Shown: positions 17,688-57,171 of the stretch, piece by piece
Numbering within the stretch: position 1 is the stretch's first letter
How the letters are laid out: every line of letters begins with the position of its first letter
Source: a virus
Lineage: Duplodnaviria; Caudoviricetes
Length of the DNA: 64,000 nucleotides
Strand: one strand, 5' to 3'
IMG/VR virus record: IMGVR_UViG_2684623050_000001
Location: 1 to 64,000 of that record
Program-made: the position numbers and the translations under genes
The notes under the pieces: model-generated
Seen by the model: only the letters and a program-made list of their open reading frames with translations
The model's database searches: none
Told to the model about the DNA's origin: nothing

Positions 17688-18027
17688 TGATCCTCTTGAG
17701 TTCGGCGTTGTCGGCGCGCGCCTGGGCGAGCTCCGCTTCGAGCTTCTTGGCGTCCTCGGCCGCGTCCTCGGCAGCGAGCTGCGCGCGGATCTTCTCGGCT
17801 TCCGATGCCTGGTGATTGGCGAGGTCGACGGTCTCGCTGACGCCGGCCGAACGACCCTGCTGGTAGAGGGCCGCGGCCGAGAGGATCAGCATGCCGAGCG
17901 CGACGAGCCAGACCTTCAGCCGGCCGGGAGCCAGCCAGGCGCCGACGACCATGAGGGCGATCCCGCTCGCCCCGACGGCTGTCGAGGCGAACGAGTAGGC
18001 GGTCCAGGCCTTCAGGAACCAGTCCAT
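17593..18027 (-). CDS. i-spanin (Rz-like)
   Basis: N-terminal TM segments then coiled coil, directly after the endolysin. Start MDWFLK. Confidence 0.7.
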   Translation of the reverse strand: MDWFLKAWTAYSFASTAVGASGIALMVVGAWLAPGRLKVWLVALGMLILSAAALYQQGRSAGVSETVDLANHQASEAEKIRAQLAAEDAAEDAKKLEAELAQARADNAELKRINDALATDPERDRRCLTVDDARRLRELRSGDR

Positions 18028-18506
18028 CAGCCGATGTCCGCGAGGCACATCTTGCGCTCGCGCTCGCGCCGGTTGGTCAGGCCCTTCACGACGCGCCCGC
18101 CCGCCTTGTTCCACATGAGCATCGCGTCGCACGCGCCCTTGTGGTCCCCGGCGTTGTAGCGGCGCACGACGGTCGAGCCGCAGAAGCCACCCGAGCCGAC
18201 GTTGTAGGCAAGGCTCGTGAAGGCGACCATGGTCCGGTCCTTCATCGGGCGCTTGACGCAGGTCTCGACCTTGGTGCCGAACTCGTCGAGGCGCTTGAGA
18301 AGCATCTCGTCGCACTGAGCCTTGGTGAAGCTCATGCCCATCTTGATGTTCTTGGTCTCGCCGTAGCAGGCGGTCGGGACACCCACGATGTCCTTGTAGG
18401 CCTTGAGGCGCAGACCCTCTTCCTGGCCGGTGTGGGTGATTGCCATCAGGCCGGCTGCGGTCGCGACGAGCGCTCCCAGCACCGACCTCTTCACGAGGCG
18501 GCTCAT
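18027..18506 (-). CDS. GH24 lysozyme endolysin (SAR-like N-terminus)
   Basis: Catalytic E-X8-D-X5-T (EGLRLKAYKDIVGVPT), SLAYNVG, GLTNRRERE, hydrophobic Ala/Gly-rich N-terminus. Confidence 0.92.
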   Translation of the reverse strand: MSRLVKRSVLGALVATAAGLMAITHTGQEEGLRLKAYKDIVGVPTACYGETKNIKMGMSFTKAQCDEMLLKRLDEFGTKVETCVKRPMKDRTMVAFTSLAYNVGSGGFCGSTVVRRYNAGDHKGACDAMLMWNKAGGRVVKGLTNRRERERKMCLADIG

Positions 18507-43130: not shown

Positions 43131-44396
43131 TCACAGCGAAACGCCGAGGATCTTGATCTGACGCACCGGGAATTCGAGATCGAGGCAGTAGCCCAGCGCG
43201 TCGGCCGGGTGCTCGACGCCCGCGCTCTTGTCCACGTCGCGCGAGCCCGGCTTGTAGATCGTCTGCTCGAAGGCGTTGATGACGTGCTTGCAGTTCCGGT
43301 CCACCTTGAGCCGGATCGTGCCGTCGGCCGCCTTGAGCATCCGATTGACCGAGTTCACGCGGTCGGCCACCTTCGGGTGCTTCTTGCGATACTTGAGATT
43401 CTTGAACTCGGCGTCGCGCAGGATGTCGAGGTCGCTCTCGCCGCGGCCGTGGCCGCGCTGGGCGCCGGCCGGGTCCGGGTAGAGAATGATCCGCTTCTTG
43501 TGCTTGAAGAACTTGCGGTCGAGCTCCTGCGCGACCTCTTCGGTCGAGGAACCGGGCAGGATGATCTCGCCCACGATCCAGACCTCGCCGTTGTCCTGCA
43601 GCTGCATGATGACCGACGACATCGGGTCGATGTTGAAGTCCTGCCCGATCCAGATCGGCAGCTGCGGGTTGAAGGCGTAGTCGCCGACGTGGATGTTGCG
43701 GTCGAACGCATGGTAGACGCGGCCGCTCATCGTCTCGAAGCTCGCCTCGAACTCCTGACGGAACGACTTGTCGTCCATGTTCTGGCGCGCGTTCTCGATC
43801 TCCTCCAGCGGGATGAACGGCGACGTGATGGTCGGGAACTGCCAGGACTTGTGCGTGTTGCGGCGCAGCTTGCCCTTCGCGTCGCGATACGTGTCGCCGC
43901 GCTGGCCCTTCATGTAGACGTCGTAGAGCCAGTTGTAGGCCTTGGGCGTCCCGATGATGATGGCGCTGCCGCGGGTCGAGGCGAGCGTCGGCATCAGGAC
44001 CTTGAACCAGGTGTCCGGCTCGATGTCCTGGGCCTCGTCGACCACGACCAGGTGCAGCGCGACGCCGCGCAGGCTGTCCGGCTTGTCCGCGCCCTTGCAC
44101 TCGATCAGCGAGCCGTTGCGCAGCCGGATCGCCATCCGGGTCTCGTTGATCCGCTTGACCCACTTGGCCGGGATCGAATCCTTTAGCTCGTCCCACAGGA
44201 TCGAGCGCGCCATCCCGTAGGTGGGCGCGACATACCAGACCTTCTGCTTGGACTTGGCCGCGGCAGCGGTGACGATCGAGATCCGCGCGAACTGGGTCTT
44301 GCCCCAGCGCCGGCCGGCAACGACCACCTTGACCCGGCGCGGATCGTTGAAGACCGTCGCCTGGCCGTGGTGGAGCTTATACTCAAGCGTCGCCAT
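43131..44396 (-). CDS. terL: Terminase large subunit
   Basis: AGRRWGKT, YVAPT, VVVDEA, GTP, FRQEFEASF, GQDFN, HPADALGY. Confidence 0.93.
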   Translation of the reverse strand: MATLEYKLHHGQATVFNDPRRVKVVVAGRRWGKTQFARISIVTAAAAKSKQKVWYVAPTYGMARSILWDELKDSIPAKWVKRINETRMAIRLRNGSLIECKGADKPDSLRGVALHLVVVDEAQDIEPDTWFKVLMPTLASTRGSAIIIGTPKAYNWLYDVYMKGQRGDTYRDAKGKLRRNTHKSWQFPTITSPFIPLEEIENARQNMDDKSFRQEFEASFETMSGRVYHAFDRNIHVGDYAFNPQLPIWIGQDFNIDPMSSVIMQLQDNGEVWIVGEIILPGSSTEEVAQELDRKFFKHKKRIILYPDPAGAQRGHGRGESDLDILRDAEFKNLKYRKKHPKVADRVNSVNRMLKAADGTIRLKVDRNCKHVINAFEQTIYKPGSRDVDKSAGVEHPADALGYCLDLEFPVRQIKILGVSL

Positions 44397-45093
44397 CGTC
44401 GCCTTCCTCGACGACGATCGCCTCGTCTTCGTCGACCACGATCGCGGCGTCCTCGTCCTCCACGAGGTCGCCGTCGTCCTCCTCCTGCTTCTCGCGCAGG
44501 GCCTTGATCTGCTCGTCGGTCAGGTTGCGGATCGAGAGCTCCGGCAGCTCGTTCTCGTCGACCTCATCGTGCGCGTTCAGGAGGTCGAAGATCTCCAGGC
44601 GGCCCATCCGGACGATCTTCATCGCCCGCTCGATCGTCTTCAGGTTGCCGTCCTCGGTCGAGAAGGCGCGCCCGTGGCGCTGCGCATCCGCGAGCCGGCC
44701 CATGGCCGCGCGCACGAGGTTGTTGGCGTAGCCGGTGTGTTCCTTCCGGACCTTCTCGATCAGGTGCTTGCGCTCGGCAGAGAGCTGCTCGGCCGTCTTG
44801 GCTGCGGGCACGGGTGCTGCGGCCGTCGCGGTCGTCTTGGCAGCCGCGGCCGTCGCCGTGGCGAGCTCATGGGCGCGCGAGCCCTTCTTCACGCCGTAGC
44901 GGAGGAAGCGCTTGCGCAGCGAGGCCGGCTTCACGCCGTAGCGGCTGCAGATCTCGTTGACCTCTGCGGTGCCGAGTTCCCACAGCTCCTTGATCTGAGC
45001 CCACTCAGCCGGGGTCAGTCGCTTCTCGCCGGAAGCTTCGATGTCCTTTTCCAGGCCCTCGTCGAGCTCCGGAGCCTCTGTCTCATTAGTCAC
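44383..45093 (-). CDS. Terminase small subunit (probable)
   Basis: N-terminal HTH (EICSRYGVKPASLRKR), directly upstream of and overlapping terL. Confidence 0.7.
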   Translation of the reverse strand: MTNETEAPELDEGLEKDIEASGEKRLTPAEWAQIKELWELGTAEVNEICSRYGVKPASLRKRFLRYGVKKGSRAHELATATAAAAKTTATAAAPVPAAKTAEQLSAERKHLIEKVRKEHTGYANNLVRAAMGRLADAQRHGRAFSTEDGNLKTIERAMKIVRMGRLEIFDLLNAHDEVDENELPELSIRNLTDEQIKALREKQEEDDGDLVEDEDAAIVVDEDEAIVVEEGDDGDA

Positions 45094-45125
45094 TGCTGAC
45101 TGACCTTTCCAAGCGCGCGTCCGGA

Positions 45126-45195
45126 GCCGCGTCCCTGTAATAGTAGTATATATAGTTACTTAGTATCTAGTCTTTATCAGGAGCGCGGACTTGGA
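45126..45195. repeat. Inverted-repeat element, copy 2
   Basis: ccgcgtccctgtaa / AT-rich spacer / tatcaggagcgcggacttgga. Confidence 0.8.
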
Positions 45196-45470
45196 TCTTC
45201 CAAGACAGGCTCTCCGGCTGTGGGCCGGATCAGCTGATAAGCCAGAAGCGTCGGAGCGAGAGATAGCCTGCGTCCGGCTCCATACTTCCGGACGAGGAGC
45301 CCGTGCTGCTCCAGATACCGGATGGAATACTGGAGCGCCTGCGGGGTCGCCTCGTAGGAGAGATCGGCGTGCAGATCGACGAAGCTGAGGTCCCGGCCCG
45401 CATCTGCGGAGCCGAGCACCAGATCCATGATCTCACGCTGCTTTGCTGTGGCTGCGAAGCGCTTGCTCAT
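45177..45470 (-). CDS. Winged-helix DNA-binding protein
   Basis: TAKQREIM..L, LQYSIRYLEQHGLLVRK, wing ..LAPT. Confidence 0.65.
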   Translation of the reverse strand: MSKRFAATAKQREIMDLVLGSADAGRDLSFVDLHADLSYEATPQALQYSIRYLEQHGLLVRKYGAGRRLSLAPTLLAYQLIRPTAGEPVLEDPSPRS

Positions 45471-46396
45471 GTCAGCACCAGGGGTTCGGTCGGCTTCTGC
45501 CGGTCGAATGCGGACAGAGGAAGGCTCTCGGGCAGGACCCGACCCTTGTCCGGGTTCTTCCAGACGCCATACATCGGCGAGGCCAACGTGATCTGTTGCA
45601 GGCTCCGGATCACGCGCCGCGCGTCCATCTCGTCGACCCGGCCCTGGCCCTTGTCGCGGTTGTTGCCGGTCTTCTCCAGCGCCGAGTGCCGGTAGTAGAA
45701 GTCGCGGGCGGCCTGGACGAGCTTCTCCTGCTCGGCCGGCGACTTGCCCGCGATCTCAGCCAGGATGGCCTCGTAGTCGGCCGGGTTCGCCTCGAAATGG
45801 CTGCGGAAGAACTTGAGCCCGGCCTCGAACTTGTTGGCGTTCATCGGCTTGACGAACTTGAACCCGGCCTTCTGCCCGAACAGGTTGAACTTCGACATGG
45901 ACGACTGGATCTCCATGAAGGTGTTCCCCTCCATGCGCGAGACCAGGTTCATCATCCGGTAGCCGCAGCCGATCCCGCGATACATCGTGTCCACGACGAA
46001 GCGCGCGATCACCCGGAAGTTGGCGTTCAGGTAGACGTAGCGGTTGGTGTTGGTGAGCTTGGTCTCGTCTCCACCCGGCTTGAGGCGCGGGAAGGCGACG
46101 TGGCGCTCCTTGAGCAGCCCCTTGGGGTTCGAGGTCACGAGGACGCCGATCGTCTCGCCGTGGAGCGCCAGCTTCCAGAACCGGGGCCCGATCGGCAGGC
46201 TCTCGGCCTTGTAGTGCAGGTCGTGCAGCAGCTCCCAGTCGTCCTTGGTGCCCCGCTCGACGACCATCTCGTCGATCAGCGAAAATCGCGCAGGGGCGCT
46301 TTCACGCGCGATCAGCGTGTCGGGGCCGTCAAACACGACGGTCGCGCTGTGCGACGAACCTCGCGCAACGCTGGGGCATCCAATTTCGAGCGACAT
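45467..46396 (-). CDS. GNAT-fold acetyltransferase, possibly DNA-modifying
   Basis: LHYK, IARFVVDTMYRGIGCG (acetyl-CoA motif A), N.F.QKAGF. Confidence 0.75.
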   Translation of the reverse strand: MSLEIGCPSVARGSSHSATVVFDGPDTLIARESAPARFSLIDEMVVERGTKDDWELLHDLHYKAESLPIGPRFWKLALHGETIGVLVTSNPKGLLKERHVAFPRLKPGGDETKLTNTNRYVYLNANFRVIARFVVDTMYRGIGCGYRMMNLVSRMEGNTFMEIQSSMSKFNLFGQKAGFKFVKPMNANKFEAGLKFFRSHFEANPADYEAILAEIAGKSPAEQEKLVQAARDFYYRHSALEKTGNNRDKGQGRVDEMDARRVIRSLQQITLASPMYGVWKNPDKGRVLPESLPLSAFDRQKPTEPLVLT

Positions 46397-46575
46397 CTCA
46401 GATCGGGGCGTAGAAGAAAGCTCGAACGAGCAGGGCGGCCCCGCCCAGGCATCCAACGATGCGGGCGAGGTCAATGAAGGTGTCGAGGCTCACGGCTGCG
46501 GGCCGAGCGCGACGAGCACGACGAGGGAGAAAGCTCCGGCGAGGAGCACGCCCCAGAAGGCTTCCCGGATCGTCC

Positions 46576-46914
46576 TCACAGCGTCTCTCCGGCACTCGGA
46601 TTGGTCCAGCGGGTGACGACCGGGCAGGAAACGCCTTCCCGGATGCCGGCCGAGATCGCGCGCCAGGCCATCGCCGGGATGTCCTCGCGGCGCAGGTCTT
46701 CGAGGATGACGGCGCCGTAGGTCTCCGCGGAGACGGCCGCGCGCTCCGAAGCGACCAGGCAGAGGCAATCCACCGTGGTTTCGCGCACCCGGTAGCCCAT
46801 CAGCGGGGCCGAGGAGCGCCAGCCGGAGCGCCGGACGATGAGGATGGTGACGTTCTCGCTCACGACACGATCTCCCAGTCCTGGGCCAGCAGATCGGACT
46901 GCGAGCACAGCCAC
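46576..46914 (-). CDS. Hypothetical protein (start uncertain)
   Basis: ORF filling the operon gap. Likely starts near 46863. Confidence 0.4.
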   Translation of the reverse strand: MAVLAVRSAGPGLGDRVVSENVTILIVRRSGWRSSAPLMGYRVRETTVDCLCLVASERAAVSAETYGAVILEDLRREDIPAMAWRAISAGIREGVSCPVVTRWTNPSAGETL

Positions 46915-47324
46915 GGCACCCGGTTCTTACAGGCCGTGAACATGAACACGTAGGGAAGGCTCATCTTCGAGTGAGCGTCCGGCACCTGAAGCTCCAGATA
47001 CATACCCTTGCCGTTCCAGCCGGCGCGGGCCACGCGCTTGCCGGCCTGCATCGCCTCGACGACCTCGCCGATCCGCAGACCCGTGGTCCGGGGCGCCTCG
47101 GCAGCCGGCGTGGTCAGGATCTTGGCCGCGGTGATGTTGAGGCGATCGGGCGCGCCGCCGAAGGTGATGTTGCCGATCACCAGATCGCCGTTCGTCTTGG
47201 CCTGGATGTCGACCTGCGAGCGCGGCTGTGAGGTCACGACGAGGCCCTCGGGCTCCCGGCTCGTGATGGTCACATCGTGATCGCCGATGACGATCTTGGT
47301 GTGAATGTCGGATTCGGTGCTCAT
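46860..47324 (-). CDS. DUF2829 / Tad2-like anti-defence protein with N-terminal extension
   Basis: GEVVEAMQAGKRVARAGWNGKGMYL...PY...VPWLCSQSDLLAQDW. Confidence 0.8.
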   Translation of the reverse strand: MSTESDIHTKIVIGDHDVTITSREPEGLVVTSQPRSQVDIQAKTNGDLVIGNITFGGAPDRLNITAAKILTTPAAEAPRTTGLRIGEVVEAMQAGKRVARAGWNGKGMYLELQVPDAHSKMSLPYVFMFTACKNRVPWLCSQSDLLAQDWEIVS

Positions 47325-47962
47325 ACTGCTGCCTTCTCGACTTCCACCTTCTCGCGGAAGCGCTTGGTGATGGTGAGGGAGGGACCGAGCTCGTCCTTGA
47401 GGTCGGTGTGGGTGGTCGCGACCATCAGCGTCCGGCCGGCAGCGCGGGCCGCCTTCTGGACGTTGAAGGCGATGACCTTCGCGGTGACGCGATCGAGGAC
47501 GGCGCCGAACTCGTCGGCGACCCACACATCGGCGTTCGAGCCGATGATCTTGGCGAGCTTCACCCGGTAGCGCTGACCGTCGGAGAGCTCGAACGGGCGC
47601 CGGATGAAGATCCAGGCGTCCGAAATGCCGGCCAGACCCAGCAGCCGCAGCCCCTCGGTCATGGAGCCACCCACCTGCTCGATGACGGGCTCGTCCGTGA
47701 GCTCGACCTCGTTGAGATCGGCCACGACCTTGCCGTCGGCGCGCAGCTTGCCCGTCAGGTCGCGCAGGAGCAGCGACTTGCCGGACCCGGACTGGCCGGT
47801 GATGTAGACGACATCGCCCTGGTTCAGCTCGACCAGCAGGTCGTCGTAGACGACGAAGCGCTTGTCGGAGAGGCCCAGACCGAAGGCCTCGGCGACTTCG
47901 AGCACGCGCGGCGTGCGCTCGACCGACGACGAGAAGGCGCGCGAGATCCGGTAGGTGCTCAT
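47321..47962 (-). CDS. Soluble ABC-family ATPase
   Basis: Walker A GQSGSGKS, signature LSDGQ, Walker B WVADEF..LD, H-loop ATTH. No permease partner. Confidence 0.85.
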   Translation of the reverse strand: MSTYRISRAFSSSVERTPRVLEVAEAFGLGLSDKRFVVYDDLLVELNQGDVVYITGQSGSGKSLLLRDLTGKLRADGKVVADLNEVELTDEPVIEQVGGSMTEGLRLLGLAGISDAWIFIRRPFELSDGQRYRVKLAKIIGSNADVWVADEFGAVLDRVTAKVIAFNVQKAARAAGRTLMVATTHTDLKDELGPSLTITKRFREKVEVEKAAV

Positions 47963-48411
47963 GCGCCGAGCTCCGGATCGTCATCGCCGTCGTCGAGGAT
48001 GATGACCTCATCGTCGGTCGGCTCGCCATATTCGGCCAGCTCCACGAGGTCGCCGCGCATCAGCTCCATCGCGCCGATCCAGCGCAGCGCCTCCTGCTCA
48101 ACCCGCTTGCCGGCCGGCGTGCGCAGCGCGAGATCGAAGAAGCCCTCGCGCTCGCCCTTGCACGAGACGATCACCAGCGCGCCCTCGACCTCGCCGGCCT
48201 TGAGCCGGGCCAGGATGCGCTCGACCATCTCGACGGCCTCCTGATCGACCTTGGGCCGACGGACGCGCTTCTTCTTCTCGACCTTCTCCGGCACCCAGGC
48301 CGAGCGGGTCTTGATCGAGATGATCTTCGGCTCCGCGGCGCGCGCCTCCTCGGCCGCCTTCCGCTTGGCGTCGATCTCCTTGATGAGCGGGTTGTTCTCG
48401 AAATCAGGCAT
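47959..48411 (-). CDS. Hypothetical protein
   Basis: Coupled ORF in the cassette. Confidence 0.6.
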   Translation of the reverse strand: MPDFENNPLIKEIDAKRKAAEEARAAEPKIISIKTRSAWVPEKVEKKKRVRRPKVDQEAVEMVERILARLKAGEVEGALVIVSCKGEREGFFDLALRTPAGKRVEQEALRWIGAMELMRGDLVELAEYGEPTDDEVIILDDGDDDPELGA

Positions 48412-48658
48412 GGGAAGTCACCACTGACTGACAGGTGCGGACAAGCCGATCCTGGCTCGGCAGGCGCTTGATCGACCCGAGATAGAGAGCGTTGGCGAGG
48501 TAGCCCCGGCGCGCGCGGTCGCGGGCCGTGAAGTTCCAGGCGAGCCCGTCGCGGGTGCGCCAGAAGGCGTGGTAGCGCCCGAAGCGGTTGCGCTGGAAGC
48601 GCATCCGGGTCCCGCCGCAGACGAGCGCGACGAGGATGCAGTTGGCCGGGAAGCGCAT
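48404..48658 (-). CDS. Hypothetical protein
   Basis: Coupled ORF with NC...H..W motif. Confidence 0.5.
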   Translation of the reverse strand: MRFPANCILVALVCGGTRMRFQRNRFGRYHAFWRTRDGLAWNFTARDRARRGYLANALYLGSIKRLPSQDRLVRTCQSVVTSHA

Positions 48659-49332
48659 CAGGCAGCGACCCCGAAGGCGTCGAGGAAGCCCATGAGGGCG
48701 TCCGCGCCGGTCTCGCCGGTCTCACCCTCGATCTTGGCGATGAAGGCCTTCACGCGCCGGCCCTGCTCGACCGTGAGCTTGCCGAAGCCGAGCGCATCCG
48801 CGACCCGCATGGTCGACGTGTCGACGGCCGCGGCCTTCTTGGTGTTCTCGACCTGCTGCTCCTCGACGGCCTCGGAGATGTCCTCGACGAAGGCGCTCTC
48901 GTCGAACTCGGCCGGGTCCTCGGTGAGGAAGCTGAGCTCCTTGGCCTCGTAGCCGAGCAGGTTGACGTCCACGTCGTCCTCGCCGGCGAGCCAGGTCAGG
49001 CTCTCGCGGATCTGGGCGGTGTCGTAGTCCTGGGTGGACGCCTTGTTGTCGGCCAGGCGCATCGCCTCGGCCTGGGCGTCGGAGAGACCCTTCACCACGA
49101 CGGCCGGGACGGACTTGAGGCCCATCTCGATCGCAGCCAGGCGCCGGCCGTGGCCCGCGATGATCTCGCCGTTCTCGCGCAGGATCAGCGGCTGGGTCCA
49201 GACGCCCGCGCCGCGGATGACGCCGACGAGCTTCTTCGTCGTCTCCGGCGTGTGCTTCTTGGCGTTCTTCGCGTAGGGCTTGAGCTTGCCGATCGGCCAG
49301 TGCTCGATGGGCAGGTCAGTCAGCGTCGTCAT
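48658..49332 (-). CDS. ParB/Srx N-terminal domain protein
   Basis: LKPYAKNAKKH, W..P, IIAGHGRRLAA, RLADNK. Confidence 0.85.
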   Translation of the reverse strand: MTTLTDLPIEHWPIGKLKPYAKNAKKHTPETTKKLVGVIRGAGVWTQPLILRENGEIIAGHGRRLAAIEMGLKSVPAVVVKGLSDAQAEAMRLADNKASTQDYDTAQIRESLTWLAGEDDVDVNLLGYEAKELSFLTEDPAEFDESAFVEDISEAVEEQQVENTKKAAAVDTSTMRVADALGFGKLTVEQGRRVKAFIAKIEGETGETGADALMGFLDAFGVAA

Positions 49333-49534
49333 CGGCCCAGTCCTTGATGATGTCGTAGAGGTCGCGCTCGGTGGGCTCGTTGTCCCGGATGCGAGGCTCG
49401 AAGTTCTCCCCGCAGCCGCAGGTGCGGCAGGCGGGATTGCGGTTCACCCGCCCGGTCGAGAAGAAGAGGCAGCTCCGGCAATCCTCGAACCGGGGCTCGA
49501 TGCGCTCGTGAACCCGAATGCCGCGATCACGCAT
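49316..49534 (-). CDS. Small Cys-rich (zinc-binding) protein
   Basis: CRSC...CRTCGC, coupled to both ParB-like genes. Confidence 0.55.
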   Translation of the reverse strand: MRDRGIRVHERIEPRFEDCRSCLFFSTGRVNRNPACRTCGCGENFEPRIRDNEPTERDLYDIIKDWADDDAD

Positions 49535-50225
49535 CGAGGGCGTCCGGGAAGTCGACGGTTGCGGGAGCGGTCTTGCCGAGCAGCAGGTGGACCAGCGCGT
49601 CGCCGGCATTCTGGAGCTCGGAGCCGGCCGTGAAGCCCTGGCGCTTCTGGGTCCGGGCGATCAGCTCGGCGAGCTTGTCGGCGTCGCCCTCGGGCACCTG
49701 GAAGCGCATGACCCGGTGGGTCTTCGGGGCGGCCGGGAGCTTGGGCTCCTCGGGATCGCTCGTGGCATCCGATTCGGACTCGCCAGCGTCGAGATCGAGC
49801 TTGTCGAGCGCTATATCGACCGACGAGAAGATCTGCGTAATGTCGTCGTTGCTCCAGGGGAGAATTTCCTGAAAGTCGAAGCCGTCACCAAAGCCCTTGA
49901 GCAGTTCCGCCAGCTCGATGGCGTCGTCACTGCCGTAGCGCTCGTTCAGGACCAGGCCGATCTGCTTGGCCTCGTCTTCGGAGATCGGTCCCAGGTTCAG
50001 CACCGGGATCAGCGGCACCTTGAGCTGAACGCAAATCTGAACGCGATGCTCGCCGCTCAGAATTTCGAGGTCCTTGCCGTTTTCGCGAACGACAATGGAT
50101 TCGATCAGACCAAGCCGACGGATCGACGCCGTAAGCTTCGCCTCGTTCTCGGGTGAAACGTGGTTGGTGTTCCACGAGTTCGGCACCAGCCGGTCCGGTG
50201 GAAGCGAGAGGGCCTTGGGATACAT
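49527..50225 (-). CDS. ParB/Srx N-terminal domain protein
   Basis: PNSWNTN, L.ASIRRLG, EILSGEHR, N..YG.DD. Confidence 0.82.
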   Translation of the reverse strand: MYPKALSLPPDRLVPNSWNTNHVSPENEAKLTASIRRLGLIESIVVRENGKDLEILSGEHRVQICVQLKVPLIPVLNLGPISEDEAKQIGLVLNERYGSDDAIELAELLKGFGDGFDFQEILPWSNDDITQIFSSVDIALDKLDLDAGESESDATSDPEEPKLPAAPKTHRVMRFQVPEGDADKLAELIARTQKRQGFTAGSELQNAGDALVHLLLGKTAPATVDFPDALDA

Positions 50226-50289
50226 GGGAGCCTGTGATAAGTCAGTGGTTACTTACCATAGGCGAAGCGGAAGGCAAGGTAAATCAGTG

Positions 50290-51984
50290 GTGACTGATCG
50301 CGTCACGATGGCCCGCGGGGTCGTCAACGCGCAGCTCGTCGGGGCCTCGAAGGAGGTCAAGGCGATGGCGCACGAGGTTCTCAGCTACGCCGTCGAGGGC
50401 GCTGAGTTTTCAGCGGCCTTCGGGCCGGGCAAGTGGGACGGTCGATCCTCCTTCTTCGCGAACGCGACCTGCCGGTTCCCGGCCGGCTTCGCCCACATGC
50501 TCCACGCGGAGCTCACGCGCCGCGGCGTGAAGGTCCAGATCGCAGCCAACCCGCTGCCGAAGCCCAAGGGCTCTCCGGACGTCCTGAGCGACGAGGAGCG
50601 CGACGGAGATCCCCGCTACGCCTATCAGCCCCGCACGATCCGGCAGCTGCTGAAGCACGGCCGCGGCATCGCCCAGATCGCCACGGGCGGCGGCAAGTCG
50701 CGGATCGCCCGGCTCGGCGCGCGGGCGCTGCGCATGCCCACCCTCTTCATCACGACGCGCGGCGTGCTGATGCACCAGATGAAGGAGGGCTTCGAGGAGG
50801 ACGGCTGGCGCGTCGGCGTGATCGGTGACGGCGAGTGGTCCCCGGTGCGCGGCATCAACGTCGCGATGGTGCAGACCCTGATGGCCCGGCTCGCCGAGGG
50901 CTCGGTCGAGAAGGAGCTCACCGCGATCATCGAGCGCCGGGCGCGCGCCGAGGAGCAGGAGAAGCTCGACCTCAAGAAGTCCATGAAGGCCTCGAACGCC
51001 AAGCCCGGCGACATCCACAAGATGCTCGACCGGCTGGAGAAGCGCCAGGAGAGCGAGCGGCTCTCGGACGAGGCCCTGGCGAAGGAAGCGACCGCGAAGG
51101 CCGATCGCCAGAACAAGCTGCGCGCGACCACGATCAAGTTCCTGGAGATGATCGAGTTCGTGATCGGCGAGGAGGCGCACGAGGCGGGCGGCAACAGCTA
51201 CTTCGAGATCCTGCGCCACTGCAAGAACGCCCACTACCGGCTGGCGCTGACCGCGACGCCCTTCATGCGGGACGACGCCGAGGACAACATGCGCCTCATG
51301 GCCGCGTTCGGCCCGATCCTGATCCAGGTCACGGAGAAGGAGCTGATCGACAAGGGCATCCTGGCGACGCCCTATTTCAAGTATGTGGACACGAGCCCGC
51401 CCAAGGCCCTGTTCAAGACCACGCCCTACCAGCGCGCCTACAAGGTCGGGATCTCCGAGAACTCGATCCGGAACGCGGTGATCGTCAACGAGGCGATGAA
51501 GGGCGTGCGCGCCGGCCTGCCGGTGATGATCCTGGTTCAGCACAAGGCGCACGGGGTCAACGTGCAGACCGCGCTGGAGACGGCCGGCGCCAAGGTCCGC
51601 TTCATCCAGGGCGAGGACAACCAGAAGGCCCGCAAGGCGGCGCTGGCCGGGCTGAAGACCGGCTCGATCGAGGTCCTGATCGGCACGACGATTCTGGACG
51701 TCGGCGTCGACGTTCCGGCCGTCGGTATGGTCATCCTGGCCGGCGCCGGCAAGGCAGAGGTCGCGCTCCGGCAGCGGATCGGTCGCGGGCTGCGCGCCAA
51801 GAAGGGTGTCCCGAATATCGCCTTCATTCTCGACTTCGTGGACAAGCAGAACACCCATCTGCGCGACCACGCCCGGCAGCGCCGCGGCATCGTCGAGGCC
51901 ACGCCTGGATTCGCCGAGCGCATCCTGCTCCCGAACCAGGACTTCCCCTGGCACCTGCTCGTTTCGGCAGCGCAGGCCGCGTAG
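50290..51984 (+). CDS. SF2 (DEAH-like) helicase
   Basis: YQ, ATGGGKS, EEAH, LTATP, GVDVP, QRIGRGLR. Divergent from the ParB cassette. Confidence 0.88.
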   Translation: MTDRVTMARGVVNAQLVGASKEVKAMAHEVLSYAVEGAEFSAAFGPGKWDGRSSFFANATCRFPAGFAHMLHAELTRRGVKVQIAANPLPKPKGSPDVLSDEERDGDPRYAYQPRTIRQLLKHGRGIAQIATGGGKSRIARLGARALRMPTLFITTRGVLMHQMKEGFEEDGWRVGVIGDGEWSPVRGINVAMVQTLMARLAEGSVEKELTAIIERRARAEEQEKLDLKKSMKASNAKPGDIHKMLDRLEKRQESERLSDEALAKEATAKADRQNKLRATTIKFLEMIEFVIGEEAHEAGGNSYFEILRHCKNAHYRLALTATPFMRDDAEDNMRLMAAFGPILIQVTEKELIDKGILATPYFKYVDTSPPKALFKTTPYQRAYKVGISENSIRNAVIVNEAMKGVRAGLPVMILVQHKAHGVNVQTALETAGAKVRFIQGEDNQKARKAALAGLKTGSIEVLIGTTILDVGVDVPAVGMVILAGAGKAEVALRQRIGRGLRAKKGVPNIAFILDFVDKQNTHLRDHARQRRGIVEATPGFAERILLPNQDFPWHLLVSAAQAA

Positions 51985-52285: not shown

Positions 52286-52876
52286 ATGAGCACCACCCTT
52301 CCCCGCTACATCGCCCTCTGCGGCAACCCGAAGGCCGGCAAGACGCTGGTCCAGACGATCCTGCAGCAGGACTACGGCGTCCAGCCGATCGACGACGGGC
52401 TCCCCTTGCGCGAGATCGCCGTCCAGCAGTTCGGGCTGACCTGGGATCAGGTCTCGACCCAGGCCGGCAAGACCGAGTTCGTCGACGTCAACGGCCAGCC
52501 CTGGCAGATCCGCAAGATCCTCGGCGAGATCGGCAACGCGCTGGAAGACAAGTTCGGCCGCAACATCCTGCCGGCGCTCGCCATCCCGCGCGCCGAGCGT
52601 GAGCACCCGGACGCGAAGGCCTTCTCCTTCGGCTCGGTGCGCCGCGATCAGGGCCTCGTCTACCGGGACCGGCTCGGGATGGTGATCGGCGTCCGGAACC
52701 CGCTGGCGCCGCCCACGGGCAACGAGTTCGACACCTTCGACGAGACCATCGTCGATTTCTGGATCGAGAACGACGGCGTGAGCATCGACAACCTCAAGCG
52801 CGAGGTCGCCGCGGCGCTCAAGCACTGGGACGCGCTGATGCACTGCGCCCAGACGATCGCTCGGAGGGCTGCGTGA
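52286..52876 (+). CDS. Deoxynucleoside monophosphate kinase-like
   Basis: IALCGNPKAGKT, PLREIA, R.ILGEIG, SVR. Confidence 0.7.
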   Translation: MSTTLPRYIALCGNPKAGKTLVQTILQQDYGVQPIDDGLPLREIAVQQFGLTWDQVSTQAGKTEFVDVNGQPWQIRKILGEIGNALEDKFGRNILPALAIPRAEREHPDAKAFSFGSVRRDQGLVYRDRLGMVIGVRNPLAPPTGNEFDTFDETIVDFWIENDGVSIDNLKREVAAALKHWDALMHCAQTIARRAA

Positions 52877-54172: not shown

Positions 54173-54265
54173 CGTTCCGGGTCCGTTCCCTACCCGTTAA
54201 CCGGGCCTTAACGTAAGCATGGGCGAATCCGCTTGTCAGCGACTTCGCGAAACGGAAATCCGCCC

Positions 54266-54946
54266 ATGCTCACCATAGCTTGCCTCTCCCAGAAGGGTGG
54301 CGTCGGTAAAAGCACCCTCACCCGACTGATCGCCCGCAGCTACGCGGCTGCCGGCTGGCGCGTGAAGATCGCCGACCTCAACACCAAGCAGAAGACGTCC
54401 GTGGACTGGGCCTCGCTCCGGATGGAAGCGAACCTGGAGCCGTCCGTCTCGGCCGAGCCCTTCGCCAACGTGCGCCAGGCGCTCCTGCAGTCGATGAACT
54501 ACGACCTCATGGTGTTCGACGGCCGCCCCGATTCCGAGACCGCGGGCCGTGACGTCGCCAAGGAGGCAGACCTCATCATCGTGCCGACCTCGGTCGCGCT
54601 CGACGACCTCGCCCCGCAGGTGAAGTTCGCCCACGAGCTGATCTCCAACGGCATCGAGCGCAAGCGCATCCTCTTCGTCATCAACCAGACGGGCGAGAGC
54701 CAGGTCGAGGTCAACGACGCGCGCGAGTATGTCCGGGTCGCCGGCTACGGCGTCTGCGAGACCCACATCTCGGCCAAGCCCAGCTACCGGACCGCGCAGA
54801 ACACCGGCCGCGCCCTGAACGAGACCACCTTCCCCTCGCTCAATGAGCGCGCCGACGCCCTGATGCAGGAGGTCGTGGATAAGGTCGCCGAGCTCGATCC
54901 CCGCGCCTCCCAGCGTGCCTCCCTGATCGCCAAGGTGCCCGCATGA
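54266..54946 (+). CDS. parA: Partition ATPase ParA (short, type Ib-like)
   Basis: SQKGGVGKST, ADL..KQ, YDLMVFDG, ADLIIVP. Confidence 0.9.
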   Translation: MLTIACLSQKGGVGKSTLTRLIARSYAAAGWRVKIADLNTKQKTSVDWASLRMEANLEPSVSAEPFANVRQALLQSMNYDLMVFDGRPDSETAGRDVAKEADLIIVPTSVALDDLAPQVKFAHELISNGIERKRILFVINQTGESQVEVNDAREYVRVAGYGVCETHISAKPSYRTAQNTGRALNETTFPSLNERADALMQEVVDKVAELDPRASQRASLIAKVPA

Positions 54947-55371
54947 GCCGTCTGAAGATCGCCCCGCCTCCCATGCCGGCCGAGCCGGCGCCCGAAGTCG
55001 TTCCAGAGCCCGTAGAGGCGCCCTCCCCTGCTCCGGCTCCCAAGGTCGACGCGCGTCCCTCGCGGCTGTCTGCGGCCCCGCCCAAGCTCGCGCAGGCCCC
55101 GATCAACCTGCACCTGCCCAGCGAAGGCTTCGTCGACCTCAATTTCAAGGTCGAGCCCGAGCTGCGCCAGCGCTTCAAGCTCGAAGCCGTCCGCCGCGGC
55201 ATGTCGAACAAGGAGCTGCTCGAAGCCTGCTTCACCGTCTACCTGGAGACGTTCCCCTCGGACGAGCCCATGCCGACCATCAAGCGTCCGACAGCAGAGA
55301 CGCTCGCCCGGCGTCGGGAGAAGCGGCTGGAGCGCGAGAAGCGTCTCGAACGCATCCGGTCGCGCCAATGA
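54943..55371 (+). CDS. Ribbon-helix-helix partition partner (ParG-like)
   Basis: Flexible Pro-rich N-terminus then LNFKVEPELRQRFKLEAVRRGMSNKELL, coupled to parA. Confidence 0.72.
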   Translation: MSRLKIAPPPMPAEPAPEVVPEPVEAPSPAPAPKVDARPSRLSAAPPKLAQAPINLHLPSEGFVDLNFKVEPELRQRFKLEAVRRGMSNKELLEACFTVYLETFPSDEPMPTIKRPTAETLARRREKRLEREKRLERIRSRQ

Positions 55372-55580: not shown

Positions 55581-55714
55581 TCGCCGGGGATCTGGTGCCT
55601 CTCCCAAGGACCGGCCGGAGATGCTGGTGGACACCCGAGGCATAGCCCAGAGCGCGTGAGTGTGGCTCTAGGACATCACTGTGTCTCAAAAACTACAGTG
55701 ACAAACGTGCAACG

Positions 55715-55751
55715 TGATGCGCGCGTGCATCAGTGTGTCACGCGCGCATCA
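55715..55751 (-). terminator. Hairpin built without GG/CC
   Basis: 13-bp stem tgatgcgcgcgtg/cacgcgcgcatca just past the 55757 stop. Confidence 0.6.
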
Positions 55752-55756
55752 GTGTG

Positions 55757-56137
55757 TCATGCTTGCTCGTCAAGCACTAATTCGACGCAATGCATAAGAA
55801 AACGCTTGAAGTCTGCGAAGTTGTCGAAGCGAAAACATTGCTTCTGCAATGTAATGTTTTCGTCAAAGTTAAGATCAGAGCATGCATAATGCGCATCGTT
55901 AAGCGTGCGCACAACGACGTGATGAAAGCTGTCGTGCTTGCGTTCGATGCGCACAGCGTCGATGTAGTGAAACTGCATCACAAGCATTTCAACGCGCTCG
56001 CTGTAAGCGTCAAAATCGTCGCGCGCGCTCATGTCAGTGCGATAGTCTGCGAAGCTGTCGAACGCGCTCATCAGCGCTTGCTCTTGCGCGAGCTTGCGTG
56101 TCTCAGCGTTCATCTCAGCGATATCTTGAAGCGTCAT
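55757..56137 (-). CDS. Hypothetical protein lacking Gly/Pro/Trp
   Basis: 126 aa from MTLQDIAE. Purine-rich AGAGAG upstream. Confidence 0.7.
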   Translation of the reverse strand: MTLQDIAEMNAETRKLAQEQALMSAFDSFADYRTDMSARDDFDAYSERVEMLVMQFHYIDAVRIERKHDSFHHVVVRTLNDAHYACSDLNFDENITLQKQCFRFDNFADFKRFLMHCVELVLDEQA

Positions 56138-56197
56138 GACGAAAACTCTCTGTGTTGCTGACAAATGCTTGTCGCATGCGTTCGCATTGCAAGTCAA

Positions 56198-56389
56198 TCA
56201 CTGCTGACTGACTTTTTCGAGCTTTTTGCGCGCGCGATGCTTCGCGACACGCAAGCGCGCATCTTCGTCTCTGTGCGACGCGACAAGCGCTAGATAAGCT
56301 TCGCGTGCGCGTTGCTTCTCTGTGCGAAGCTCGCTCAGACGCGCTTCGATTGACGCGATTTCAGCGCGCAGAGCGTCAGACTTGCACAT
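56198..56389 (-). CDS. Small coiled-coil protein lacking Gly/Pro/Trp
   Basis: 63 aa, heptad pattern, GAGAAG upstream. Confidence 0.5.
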   Translation of the reverse strand: MCKSDALRAEIASIEARLSELRTEKQRAREAYLALVASHRDEDARLRVAKHRARKKLEKVSQQ

Positions 56390-56449
56390 AGCGTTTGCTT
56401 CTCATGAGAGCGTCGCACAGCGCGTTCGCGCGCTCTGAGCTAGTGAGAG

Positions 56450-56478
56450 CGCTAGAGACGCGCGAAGCGTCTCTAGCG
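56450..56478 (-). terminator. Hairpin built without GG/CC
   Basis: Stem cgctagagacgc/gcgtctctagcg just past the 56492 stop. Confidence 0.65.
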
Positions 56479-56491
56479 TGCGTCTGAGCGC

Positions 56492-57106
56492 TTAGAGCGC
56501 GACGTTCAGCGCTTTCGCGAGACGCTTCGTCGTCGTCGCGCTCAGATTGAGCTTGTAAGCGACTTTGTTCATGTCGTCGCGCGTCTCTGTCAGCACGTCG
56601 AACATTTGCAGCGCATTGATGCTAGAGCTTGACTGAGTGTCAGCAGTGCTTGCAGCGATGCTGCGAGCGTAGCGCGAAATCAGTTGCTCTTTCGTCGCGT
56701 CGCACTTGAGCGCGTCGCACAGCGACGCTTGAGCGTCAGCGTGCGTCATGCTCTTGTCAGCTTTCGTCAGATTGAGAGCAGTCAAGAAAACGTGCTTGCT
56801 GTAGACGTTCAGCGCTTCAGCTTTGACAGCAGCGCGCGCGACGTTGAACACTTTCTCAGCGCTGTAGACGTTGAAACGCTTGTTGCGACGCTCTTGACGA
56901 TTGATGAAGTCAGCAGCGACGTTCGCAGTGTGCATGACTTCGCAAACGACGTCTGACGCGAAGTCAGCGCGAAGCGACTTGAACGTCTTGAAAATGTTTT
57001 CGTTAGCGTTGTTCTCGCGCTCATAAGCTTCGCGAGCGTCGAAAGCAGAAGTGAGAGCGAGCTTGTAAGCAGTGACAGCTTCGTTCTTCGCGACGTTGTT
57101 GCTCAT
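56492..57106 (-). CDS. Hypothetical protein lacking Gly/Pro/Trp; paralog of 58363-59271
   Basis: 204 aa from MSNNVAK. Shares F.NR.....R.NVY...KV and AST..TQ.SS...AL with the 58363 protein. Confidence 0.82.
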   Translation of the reverse strand: MSNNVAKNEAVTAYKLALTSAFDAREAYERENNANENIFKTFKSLRADFASDVVCEVMHTANVAADFINRQERRNKRFNVYSAEKVFNVARAAVKAEALNVYSKHVFLTALNLTKADKSMTHADAQASLCDALKCDATKEQLISRYARSIAASTADTQSSSSINALQMFDVLTETRDDMNKVAYKLNLSATTTKRLAKALNVAL

Positions 57107-57143
57107 GTCTGTGTCTCTCTGTGTTTGTGTGCTGACAAGAGAC

Positions 57144-57171
57144 AATTTAGTCAGTTCGCATTGAGAGTCAA
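57144..57171 (-). promoter_or_regulatory. Sigma70-like promoter of the island gene
   Basis: TTGACT-16 bp-TAAATT, with a degenerate palindrome immediately upstream of and overlapping -35. Confidence 0.55.

Follow-up and report, generated by a model that had tools for sequence, protein, structure and literature searches.

A terminase-linked module of ParB-like, ABC ATPase and GNAT proteins in the SSU5/nickie/RHEph10 phage lineage and its possible role in DNA modification

Phages have a GNAT acyltransferase coupled with an ABC-type ATPase, and the pair has been predicted to attach an acyl group of uncharacterised kind to a DNA base (Iyer et al. 2013, as cited in PMC7824862). Our literature searches found no experimental work on such an ABC-GNAT pair. 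Here we describe a gene cassette at positions 45177-50225 of a 64,000-nucleotide stretch of viral DNA, called the window below, which covers positions 1 to 64,000 of the IMG/VR record IMGVR_UViG_2684623050_000001 (Duplodnaviria; Caudoviricetes). The window is carried by contig C2, a phage-plasmid replicon of 117,697 bp with 65.3% GC, accompanied by a 5.4-Mb chromosome with 68.5% GC. The four core genes of the cassette encode two ParB-like proteins (ParB1 and ParB2), a soluble ABC ATPase and a GNAT-fold protein, and they are followed by the terminase genes. We conclude that the cassette is a member of a widespread, conserved and packaging-linked module, which has been predicted already and is uncharacterised. 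The ABC ATPase and GNAT proteins of the window match both halves of the fused proteins of the predicted system. JGI calls close homologues of our GNAT protein 'ABC-type ATPase with predicted acetyltransferase domain', and two phage records are labelled 'ABC-type ATPase fused to a predicted acyltransferase domain'. The window differs from that system in that the two domains are encoded by separate genes, with up to two open reading frames (ORFs) between them, and in that two ParB-like genes and a winged-helix gene accompany the pair directly before terS/terL.

Other described systems resemble parts of the cassette. ParB176, a phage ParB-like protein, was shown experimentally to be required by the thymine dioxygenase 5mYOX176 on double-stranded DNA (PMC13229309). 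There too, a ParB gene lies beside the gene of a post-replicative DNA-modifying enzyme that needs the ParB protein, and ParB176 consists of a nucleotide-binding N-domain and a C-terminal part with no evident DNA-binding domain, an outline which ParB2 shares, the two being likened by description only. The enzyme in that system is an iron- and 2-oxoglutarate-dependent (Fe/2OG) dioxygenase, whereas here its place is taken by the ABC-GNAT pair, and the cassette has two ParB paralogues. Mom of phage Mu, a late-acting adenine modifier that acylates a DNA base (PMC7824862), is alike in its GNAT fold and has no ABC ATPase or ParB partner. TmcA and NAT10, which are ATP-dependent cytidine N4-acetyltransferases of RNA, couple an NTPase to a GNAT that acetylates a nucleobase amine and offer a chemical model for cytosine; they differ from the window proteins in their helicase-type ATPase, as against the ABC type here, and in their RNA substrate. 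Lastly, ParB-DNA methyltransferase fusions (phrog_498, PADLOC MTase_II) have an N-terminal ParB part like ParB2, from which the methyltransferase domain is absent.

How might the proteins of the cassette act together? We find it plausible that they modify DNA. Our more specific reading, which is tentative and which we would give a little less than an even chance, is an ATP-dependent acyl transfer to phage DNA that is linked to packaging and aided by the ParB-like proteins. The four core genes would then encode one machine working with DNA packaging, in which the ABC ATPase and the GNAT protein would be the two halves of an ATP-dependent acyltransferase, and ParB1 and ParB2, with their ParB/Srx fold and no recognisable helix-turn-helix (HTH), would be DNA-loading or activating partners like the ParB-like protein of the phage thymine dioxygenase. 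The likeliest substrate, we infer, is the phage's own DNA. The acyl group may pass from acyl-CoA to an exocyclic base amine at a late stage of infection, shortly before the DNA is packaged or while this happens, and such timing would explain why these genes head the packaging and structural operon.

The ABC ATPase-GNAT pair and its fused relatives

The GNAT protein is encoded on the minus strand at 45467-46474 and is 335 aa long as listed. It belongs to phrog_886 (E 4e-121), and its 954 homologues at E<=1e-3 align to the conserved core of residues ~50-335 only, so the gene probably starts at an internal Met. The protein matched no Pfam family at E<=0.01 and a PDB sequence search gave nothing at E<=1, and it was a predicted structure that confirmed the GNAT fold: all 50 top VIA-align rows for the AlphaFold2 model are GNATs (Z 9.5-11.6, 109-161 residues aligned), and Foldseek concurs. 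GNATs are marked by the acyl-CoA pyrophosphate-binding motif Q/R-x-x-G-x-G/A, and in the alignment of 23 GNAT sequences R166-G167-x-G169-x-G171 is invariant. The ABC ATPase (47321-47962, minus strand, 213 aa) matches ABC_tran with 50.7 bits and phrog_293 with E 8.9e-41, and its Walker A motif GQSGSGK, the signature SxGQ, the Walker B residues DE and the His of the H-loop are invariant in an alignment of 17 relatives. That this ATPase is soluble and comes without a permease had been proposed in the preliminary description of this DNA and is borne out here, as none of the ten cassette ORFs matched a permease family in Pfam. We also considered the ABC ATPase as a transporter subunit and rejected it, given the lack of a permease family in the cassette and a gene fusion which names the GNAT protein as its partner.

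This fusion emerged from a profile-free search of 1.84 billion representatives with the GNAT protein (E<=1e-3). Many of the 222 relatives have 450-900 aa, with ~200 N-terminal residues preceding the homologous part; in all 13 of the long relatives tested, ABC_tran precedes the part that was matched, and 7 of these 13 distant homologues also match Acetyltransf_1, _7 or _10 of Pfam (E<=1e-3) within the homologous region. Using an alignment of 27 fused ABC-GNAT proteins we fetched viral loci of the fused type, and the 80 analysed, which are the best of 524, gave the same picture throughout: the ABC and GNAT profiles of the window family both match one single ORF in 80/80. The window ABC ATPase is moreover 47-50% identical to the ABC half of the fused proteins. 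Because of the shared ORF and this identity, the sequences indicate that the ABC ATPase and GNAT proteins of the window are a split form of one enzyme, the fused ABC-GNAT protein. Two of the distant relatives have a further fusion partner, P0241 (1260 aa), in which the ABC-GNAT unit is fused to a family-B DNA polymerase, and P0163 (665 aa; probably archaeal), in which it is fused to a TFIIB repeat.

The fused genes, too, mostly lie next to the terminase. In 58 of the 80 loci terL stands directly beside the fused gene on the same strand (55 upstream, 3 downstream). Another 8 loci have it at some distance, and in 14 it did not turn up with the four terL queries that we used in place of a general profile. 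These terL proteins are at most 27% identical to that of the window and the gene order differs, so the pairing of ABC-GNAT with terL occurs in two very distant groups. As for the remaining neighbours, Pfam matches in eight loci showed that the fused gene abuts that of a DNA polymerase III (Pol III) alpha subunit in locus L129, of a PolA with an N-terminal uracil-DNA glycosylase (UDG) domain in L156 and of a D12 DNA methylase-containing protein in L105. The contexts of the ABC-GNAT unit are in this sense centred on DNA (the PolB fusion and the Pol III alpha, PolA-UDG and D12 methylase neighbours), which supports a DNA substrate. In two further loci (L171:7516-9338 and L113:3645-5440) the fused gene is followed by Amidoligase_2 and GGACT (gamma-glutamyl cyclotransferase-like) genes, with terL a few kb downstream, which hints at a multi-step pathway to an amino-acid-like adduct. 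We also noted that in 27/80 loci no more than 300 bp separate the end of the fused gene from that of the fetched sequence, which to judge from its coordinates is usually a contig end; with terL just upstream, this place may be a genome terminus or an assembly break.

Could the substrate be something other than DNA? A possible but rather doubtful alternative is that the ABC-GNAT pair serves packaging but acylates a small molecule such as a polyamine counter-ion, or a protein, for which the terminase, the portal and an internal head protein are candidates, with the ParB-like proteins being used for the initiation of packaging or the handling of DNA. Several points speak for this and against DNA acylation with a ParB-like loader. 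The adjacency to terL in two lineages suits any packaging-linked substrate, and a protein or a counter-ion fits it equally well. Most characterised GNATs acylate proteins or small molecules, and the top Foldseek rows for our GNAT model are agmatine, polyamine and arylalkylamine N-acetyltransferases. The model itself, made from 23 sequences, is of middling confidence (predicted local distance difference test, pLDDT, 72.6; core residues 64-310). The specific resemblance to Mom which had been suggested earlier was not supported: at 9% identity, Mom (8bv8) aligns over 139 residues with a root-mean-square deviation (rmsd) of 3.4 and Z 10.0, a score that dozens of unrelated GNATs equal; it ranks 22nd among these in VIA-align and 49th in Foldseek. 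TmcA and NAT10 are both among the Foldseek rows (E 3e-4 to 3e-3), with alignments (rmsd 13-16 Å, TM 0.13-0.29) that have only the GNAT part in common. The 80 fused loci may be one broad clade, and 58/80 counts loci, not independent events. Finally, the link with ParB is not general, since the ParB profiles of the window family match just 1/80 fused loci and tblastn gave a ParB-HTH-type protein for 8/80. Against a protein or small-molecule substrate stand the cases in which the ABC-GNAT unit is fused to, or adjoins, a DNA polymerase or a DNA methylase; the ParB2 domain occurs in DNA methyltransferase fusions as well, and a ParB-dependent DNA modifier has a published precedent (PMC13229309). Nor do the fold comparisons decide for an amine or a protein, as the GNAT rows tie and name no substrate.

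The ParB-like proteins and the conserved core of the cassette

ParB1, the product of the first gene of the cassette (49527-50225, minus strand, 232 aa), matches ParB_N with 27.5 bits against a cut-off of 26.3 (E 3.3e-6) and phrog_723 with E 1.1e-50, and its motifs NPWNTN, GGEHR, DNARYGxDD, KTH and NAGDAL are invariant in 22 relatives. ParB2 (48658-49332, minus strand, 224 aa) matches ParB_N with 33.6 bits and phrog_930 with E 2.5e-60, and NxKxH, GHGR and RxxDN are invariant across 25 relatives. As the pocket motifs are invariant, we would argue that the nucleotide pocket of both proteins is in use. The model of ParB2 (pLDDT 87.8) has the ParB/Srx nucleotide-binding fold in residues 1-100, and this N-domain aligns with PadC at Z 12.7 (rmsd 2.3 Å, 94 residues), with KorB-CTP at Z 11.7 and with sulfiredoxin at Z 10.9. 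Residues 143-224 are helical and gave no fold match above Z 3.5, which leaves a DNA-binding role possible for this part; Pfam recognised HTH_ParB in neither protein. In alignment, the CTP-binding motif GERRxRA corresponds to GHGRRLAA in ParB2 and to GGEHRVQ in ParB1; the Gly and one or two Arg are retained and the remainder is altered. The N-domain of ParB2 also matches the ParB part of the ParB-methyltransferase fusions (phrog_498, E 4.3e-31; PADLOC MTase_II, E 3e-22).

GenBank records call these ParB-like genes partition proteins. Is it possible that ParB1 and ParB2 are indeed partition or centromere-binding proteins of a prophage-plasmid and that the rest of the cassette is unrelated cargo? 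Besides the GenBank labels, the similarity to Pfam ParB_N points in this direction, as does that to parB_part of NCBIfam, although the latter scores of 35.3 and 18.8 bits are under the cut-off of 58.45. We nevertheless regard this explanation as highly improbable. A separate pair, ParA and a ribbon-helix-helix protein, is encoded at 54233-55371, and the earlier view that ParB1 and ParB2 are distinct from the partition pair is upheld. Furthermore, Pseudomonas phage nickie keeps both ParB-like genes and has no ParA match, and its relative psageB1 showed no temperate behaviour (PMC8537276); together these argue against a role in partition. The two genes are also co-oriented and overlapping with the ABC-GNAT genes. 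With a separate ParA and ribbon-helix-helix pair, no ParA match in nickie and no recognised HTH, we rejected ParB1 and ParB2 as the partition proteins of the plasmid.

The replicon shares its lineage with Salmonella phage SSU5, Pseudomonas phage nickie and Rhizobium phage RHEph10, and RHph_N1_15, SSU5 and nickie share the order ParB - ParB - ABC - (small) - GNAT - (small) - terS-like - terL, which in SSU5 wraps round the end of the record. We fetched 80 IMG/VR loci for the split form of the cassette, 63 of which span ParB1 to terL, and ParB1, ParB2, ABC, GNAT and terL were present in 63/63. We then compared the 133 ORFs called on the replicon with eight genomes (nickie, SSU5, ANB28 and five others, here G001-G005). 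The 26 ORFs matched in all eight include the same four genes, next to those of the primase, helicases, Pol III alpha, RecA, SbcCD and head and tail proteins. In a collection of phage genomes searched by tblastn, the GNAT gene occurs in 31 records. The 31 records whose terL is at least 52% identical to that of the window are this same set, as judged from the organism count and 30 listed accessions; the next terL relatives are at most 41% identical, and no record of the collection had a close terL (>=52% identity) and lacked the GNAT gene.

By their distribution in these relatives, the other ORFs of the cassette are accessory. Among the 63 spanning loci a homologue of the winged-helix gene was found in 45, of the Cys-rich ORF in 30, of a Tad2-like gene in 11, of the 84-aa ORF in 2, of the 150-aa ORF in 1 and of the 112-aa ORF in 2 (the last by tblastn). 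The Tad2-like (DUF2829) protein is encoded at 46860-47330 on the minus strand, as an insert between the ABC and GNAT genes. Its C-terminal domain (residues 87-155) matches PF11195 with 79.2 bits, well above the cut-off of 25 (E 3.3e-22). Since a homologue is present in just 11/63 relatives we call this gene accessory; it would be an accessory gene inside a core operon, possibly with an anti-Thoeris role. Such an insert, together with the patchy small ORFs, means that the locus accepts accessory genes, and this raises the question whether the whole cassette might be an anti-defence or host-takeover island. In that case the GNAT protein would acylate host RNA polymerase, tRNA or a defence protein, the ParB/Srx proteins would interfere with host or rival DNA, and the Tad2-like protein would sequester Thoeris signals. 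Modification of host RNA polymerase by GNATs of phages has been described (PMC7824862), and the fold rows of ParB2 include, weakly, the fertility-inhibition protein Osa (Z 4.9). We think this explanation unlikely. Anti-defence genes are usually variable, whereas the core genes are conserved like terL and the portal gene, in 63/63 loci and in the 26-gene core; the Tad2-like gene is not among them, and PADLOC reported nothing on the cassette beyond the methylase ParB domain and generic ATPase similarity.

The cassette has ten ORFs in all, every one on the minus strand, which holds nearly all genes of the replicon. They mostly abut or overlap by 1-17 nt, and their GC content at third codon positions (GC3) is 0.71-0.97, against 0.59-0.76 for the overlapping plus-strand ORFs. 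The preliminary description had listed two ParB-like genes, a Cys-rich gene, an ABC ATPase, a GNAT and a winged-helix gene just before terS/terL; that list proved right and was incomplete, as it had overlooked the Tad2-like gene and the ORFs of 84, 150 and 112 aa. The Cys-rich ORF (49316-49609, minus strand, 97 aa as listed, GC3 0.86) has five Cys in the pattern CxxC...CxxCxC and probably starts at an internal Met. Like the 84-aa ORF (48404-48658, minus strand, GC3 0.89) and the 150-aa ORF (47959-48411, minus strand, GC3 0.91), it matched no Pfam or PHROG family; the 112-aa ORF (46576-46914, minus strand, GC3 0.82), a doubtful gene, has no family either. The last protein of the cassette (45177-45470, minus strand, 97 aa) matches phrog_900 (E 1.3e-9) and no Pfam family, and the winged-helix neighbours of its Atlas structure are PadR, MarR and IclR (TM 0.68-0.74).

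Downstream, on the same strand, follow the gene of a terS-like DNA-binding protein (44383-45093; phrog_867, E 8.8e-34), terL, the large terminase gene (43131-44396; Terminase_3 and Terminase_6N, phrog_2 with E 1.1e-51), and the portal gene. On the other side of the cassette, transcription diverges from ~50350 towards a UvsW-like helicase gene. A promoter and terminator scan of 44300-50600 was uninformative: it gave no promoter-like site, and its 3 terminator-like sites compare with an expectation of 2.9. Two further genes of the replicon may be mentioned here. The 196-aa ORF at 52286-52876, which adjoins the UvsW-like helicase gene, matches the deoxynucleoside monophosphate kinase family (phrog_139, E 3e-14); it is kept in most relatives of the alphaproteobacterial type and was not found in nickie or SSU5. 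The Pol III alpha of the replicon (contig C2 106836-110240, outside the window) has a C-terminal domain of the uracil-DNA glycosylase superfamily (PF03167, E 3.5e-9).

The CC/GG-free island and the cassette

A few kb from the cassette, at 55671-57202, the window contains an island of 1531 bp without CC or GG at 56% GC. No other CC/GG-free gap exceeds 151 bp on the replicon or 115 bp elsewhere in the 5.6-Mb genome, gaps in Markov simulations reach at most 86 bp, and the other dinucleotide classes showed nothing resembling this island. Two minus-strand ORFs lie in it, 55757-56197 and 56492-57106 (the latter from an internal Met), and encode proteins without Gly, Pro or Trp. Neither matched a Pfam or PHROG family, and a tblastn search of the phage collection with the protein of 56492-57106 gave no match. 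Close to the island on its upstream side, at 57364-57587 and 58141-58307, the words CCCATGGG, CCGCGG, CCACGG and CCGTGG form two clusters, in which they often follow each other at a spacing of 10 bp. Each cluster adjoins a copy of a 43-nt repeat (57375-57417 and 58247-58289, 86% alike), and together they flank a minus-strand gene of 106 aa with no family (57667-57987). The clusters look like operator or centromere-like arrays.

It had been proposed that the cassette modifies virion DNA and is the best candidate to explain this island, in which case cassettes and islands should co-occur across phage-plasmids. The link between the two proved weak, and the proposed explanation of the island is not supported. 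We scanned ten genomes, all of which carry the core cassette (10/10), and an island of at least 500 bp was present in six. The longest CC/GG-free stretch is 1531 bp in our replicon, 1350 bp in G003, 1339 bp in G002, 1150 bp in RHph_N1_15 (41 kb scanned), 1137 bp in nickie and 564 bp in G001, and these islands of nickie, RHph_N1_15 and G001-G003 (564-1350 bp) are syntenic with that of the replicon. In the four other cassette bearers it is 174 bp in ANB28 (98.4 of 108.4 kb scanned), 154 bp in SSU5 (lowest 500-bp window 14 CC/GG steps, median 55), 110 bp in G005 (lowest window 11, median 50) and 65 bp in G004 (lowest window 38, median 75). G004 is a complete genome of 60% GC and has no CC/GG depletion at all. 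At the position syntenic with the island, CC/GG is locally 4- to 5-fold rarer in SSU5 (~95.1-97 kb) and G005:C1 (~46.7 kb), which have no island, and a single gap of 154-174 bp lies there in each of SSU5 and ANB28. Among the IMG/VR loci with a full 10-kb flank, 18/35 have a 500-bp window with at most 3 CC/GG steps; this is a lower bound, because in three of five apparent negatives the island lay just past the flank. Within ~6 kb of the fused ABC-GNAT genes we found no CC/GG-free or other dinucleotide-free stretch, in a coverage that is too small to conclude from. The tie between cassette and island is not obligatory. In the four genomes without an island of at least 500 bp, and above all in the undepleted G004, no sequence footprint of a DNA mark was seen, which suits the acylation of a protein or a counter-ion.

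Might another gene have produced the island? Only one of the 133 ORFs of the replicon tracks it: 18027-18506 is present in all four of the compared genomes that have an island and absent from the four that have none. This ORF matches a region annotated as endolysin in nickie and was rejected as the writer. A Pfam search (E<=1e-5) of 79 + 14 of the 133 ORFs, those outside the tail and head region, found no other DNA-base-modifying family. Since no such family is present in the ORFs scanned, the cassette remains the sole candidate within the replicon, and a weak one, by default. It may be that the module writes a bulky acyl mark on the CC/GG of packaged DNA, that the host polymerase cannot read DNA marked in this way and that the phage therefore keeps 55671-57202, a unit of promoter and gene, free of CC and GG as an unmarked start-up cassette. 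We judge this to be improbable; any sequence preference of the CC/GG type would be conjectural, and the island-free relatives would need a writer of other or weaker specificity. The termini of Nican01, a relative of nickie, are given as 'DTR (long)' (PMC11256456), and if the whole lineage packages its DNA with long terminal repeats, the island could be in the DNA that enters first, as in T5. The part of the RHEph10 and Nickievirus literature that was available held no statement on DNA modification or restriction resistance. Returning to the four explanations weighed above, namely ATP-dependent acylation of phage DNA, acylation of a protein or counter-ion, anti-defence and partition, we leave what probability remains to something that we have not considered.

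Meaning of the module for the phages

To the earlier prediction of an ABC-GNAT system the present work adds the relation between its split and fused forms, the linkage to the terminase in a second group, the core status of the four genes and the counter-examples to an obligatory tie with the island. The module is among the few genes retained throughout the SSU5/nickie/RHEph10 lineage, including phage-plasmids of Salmonella, Klebsiella and E. coli, and the public labels 'ABC transporter' and 'partition protein' for these genes are not supported by the present evidence. If the module does acylate DNA, it would represent a phage DNA hypermodification of a new kind, coupled to packaging and served by a ParB-like loader. 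In that case it would matter for the evasion of restriction, for work that sequences or clones these phages and for our view of how the ParB fold has been repurposed.

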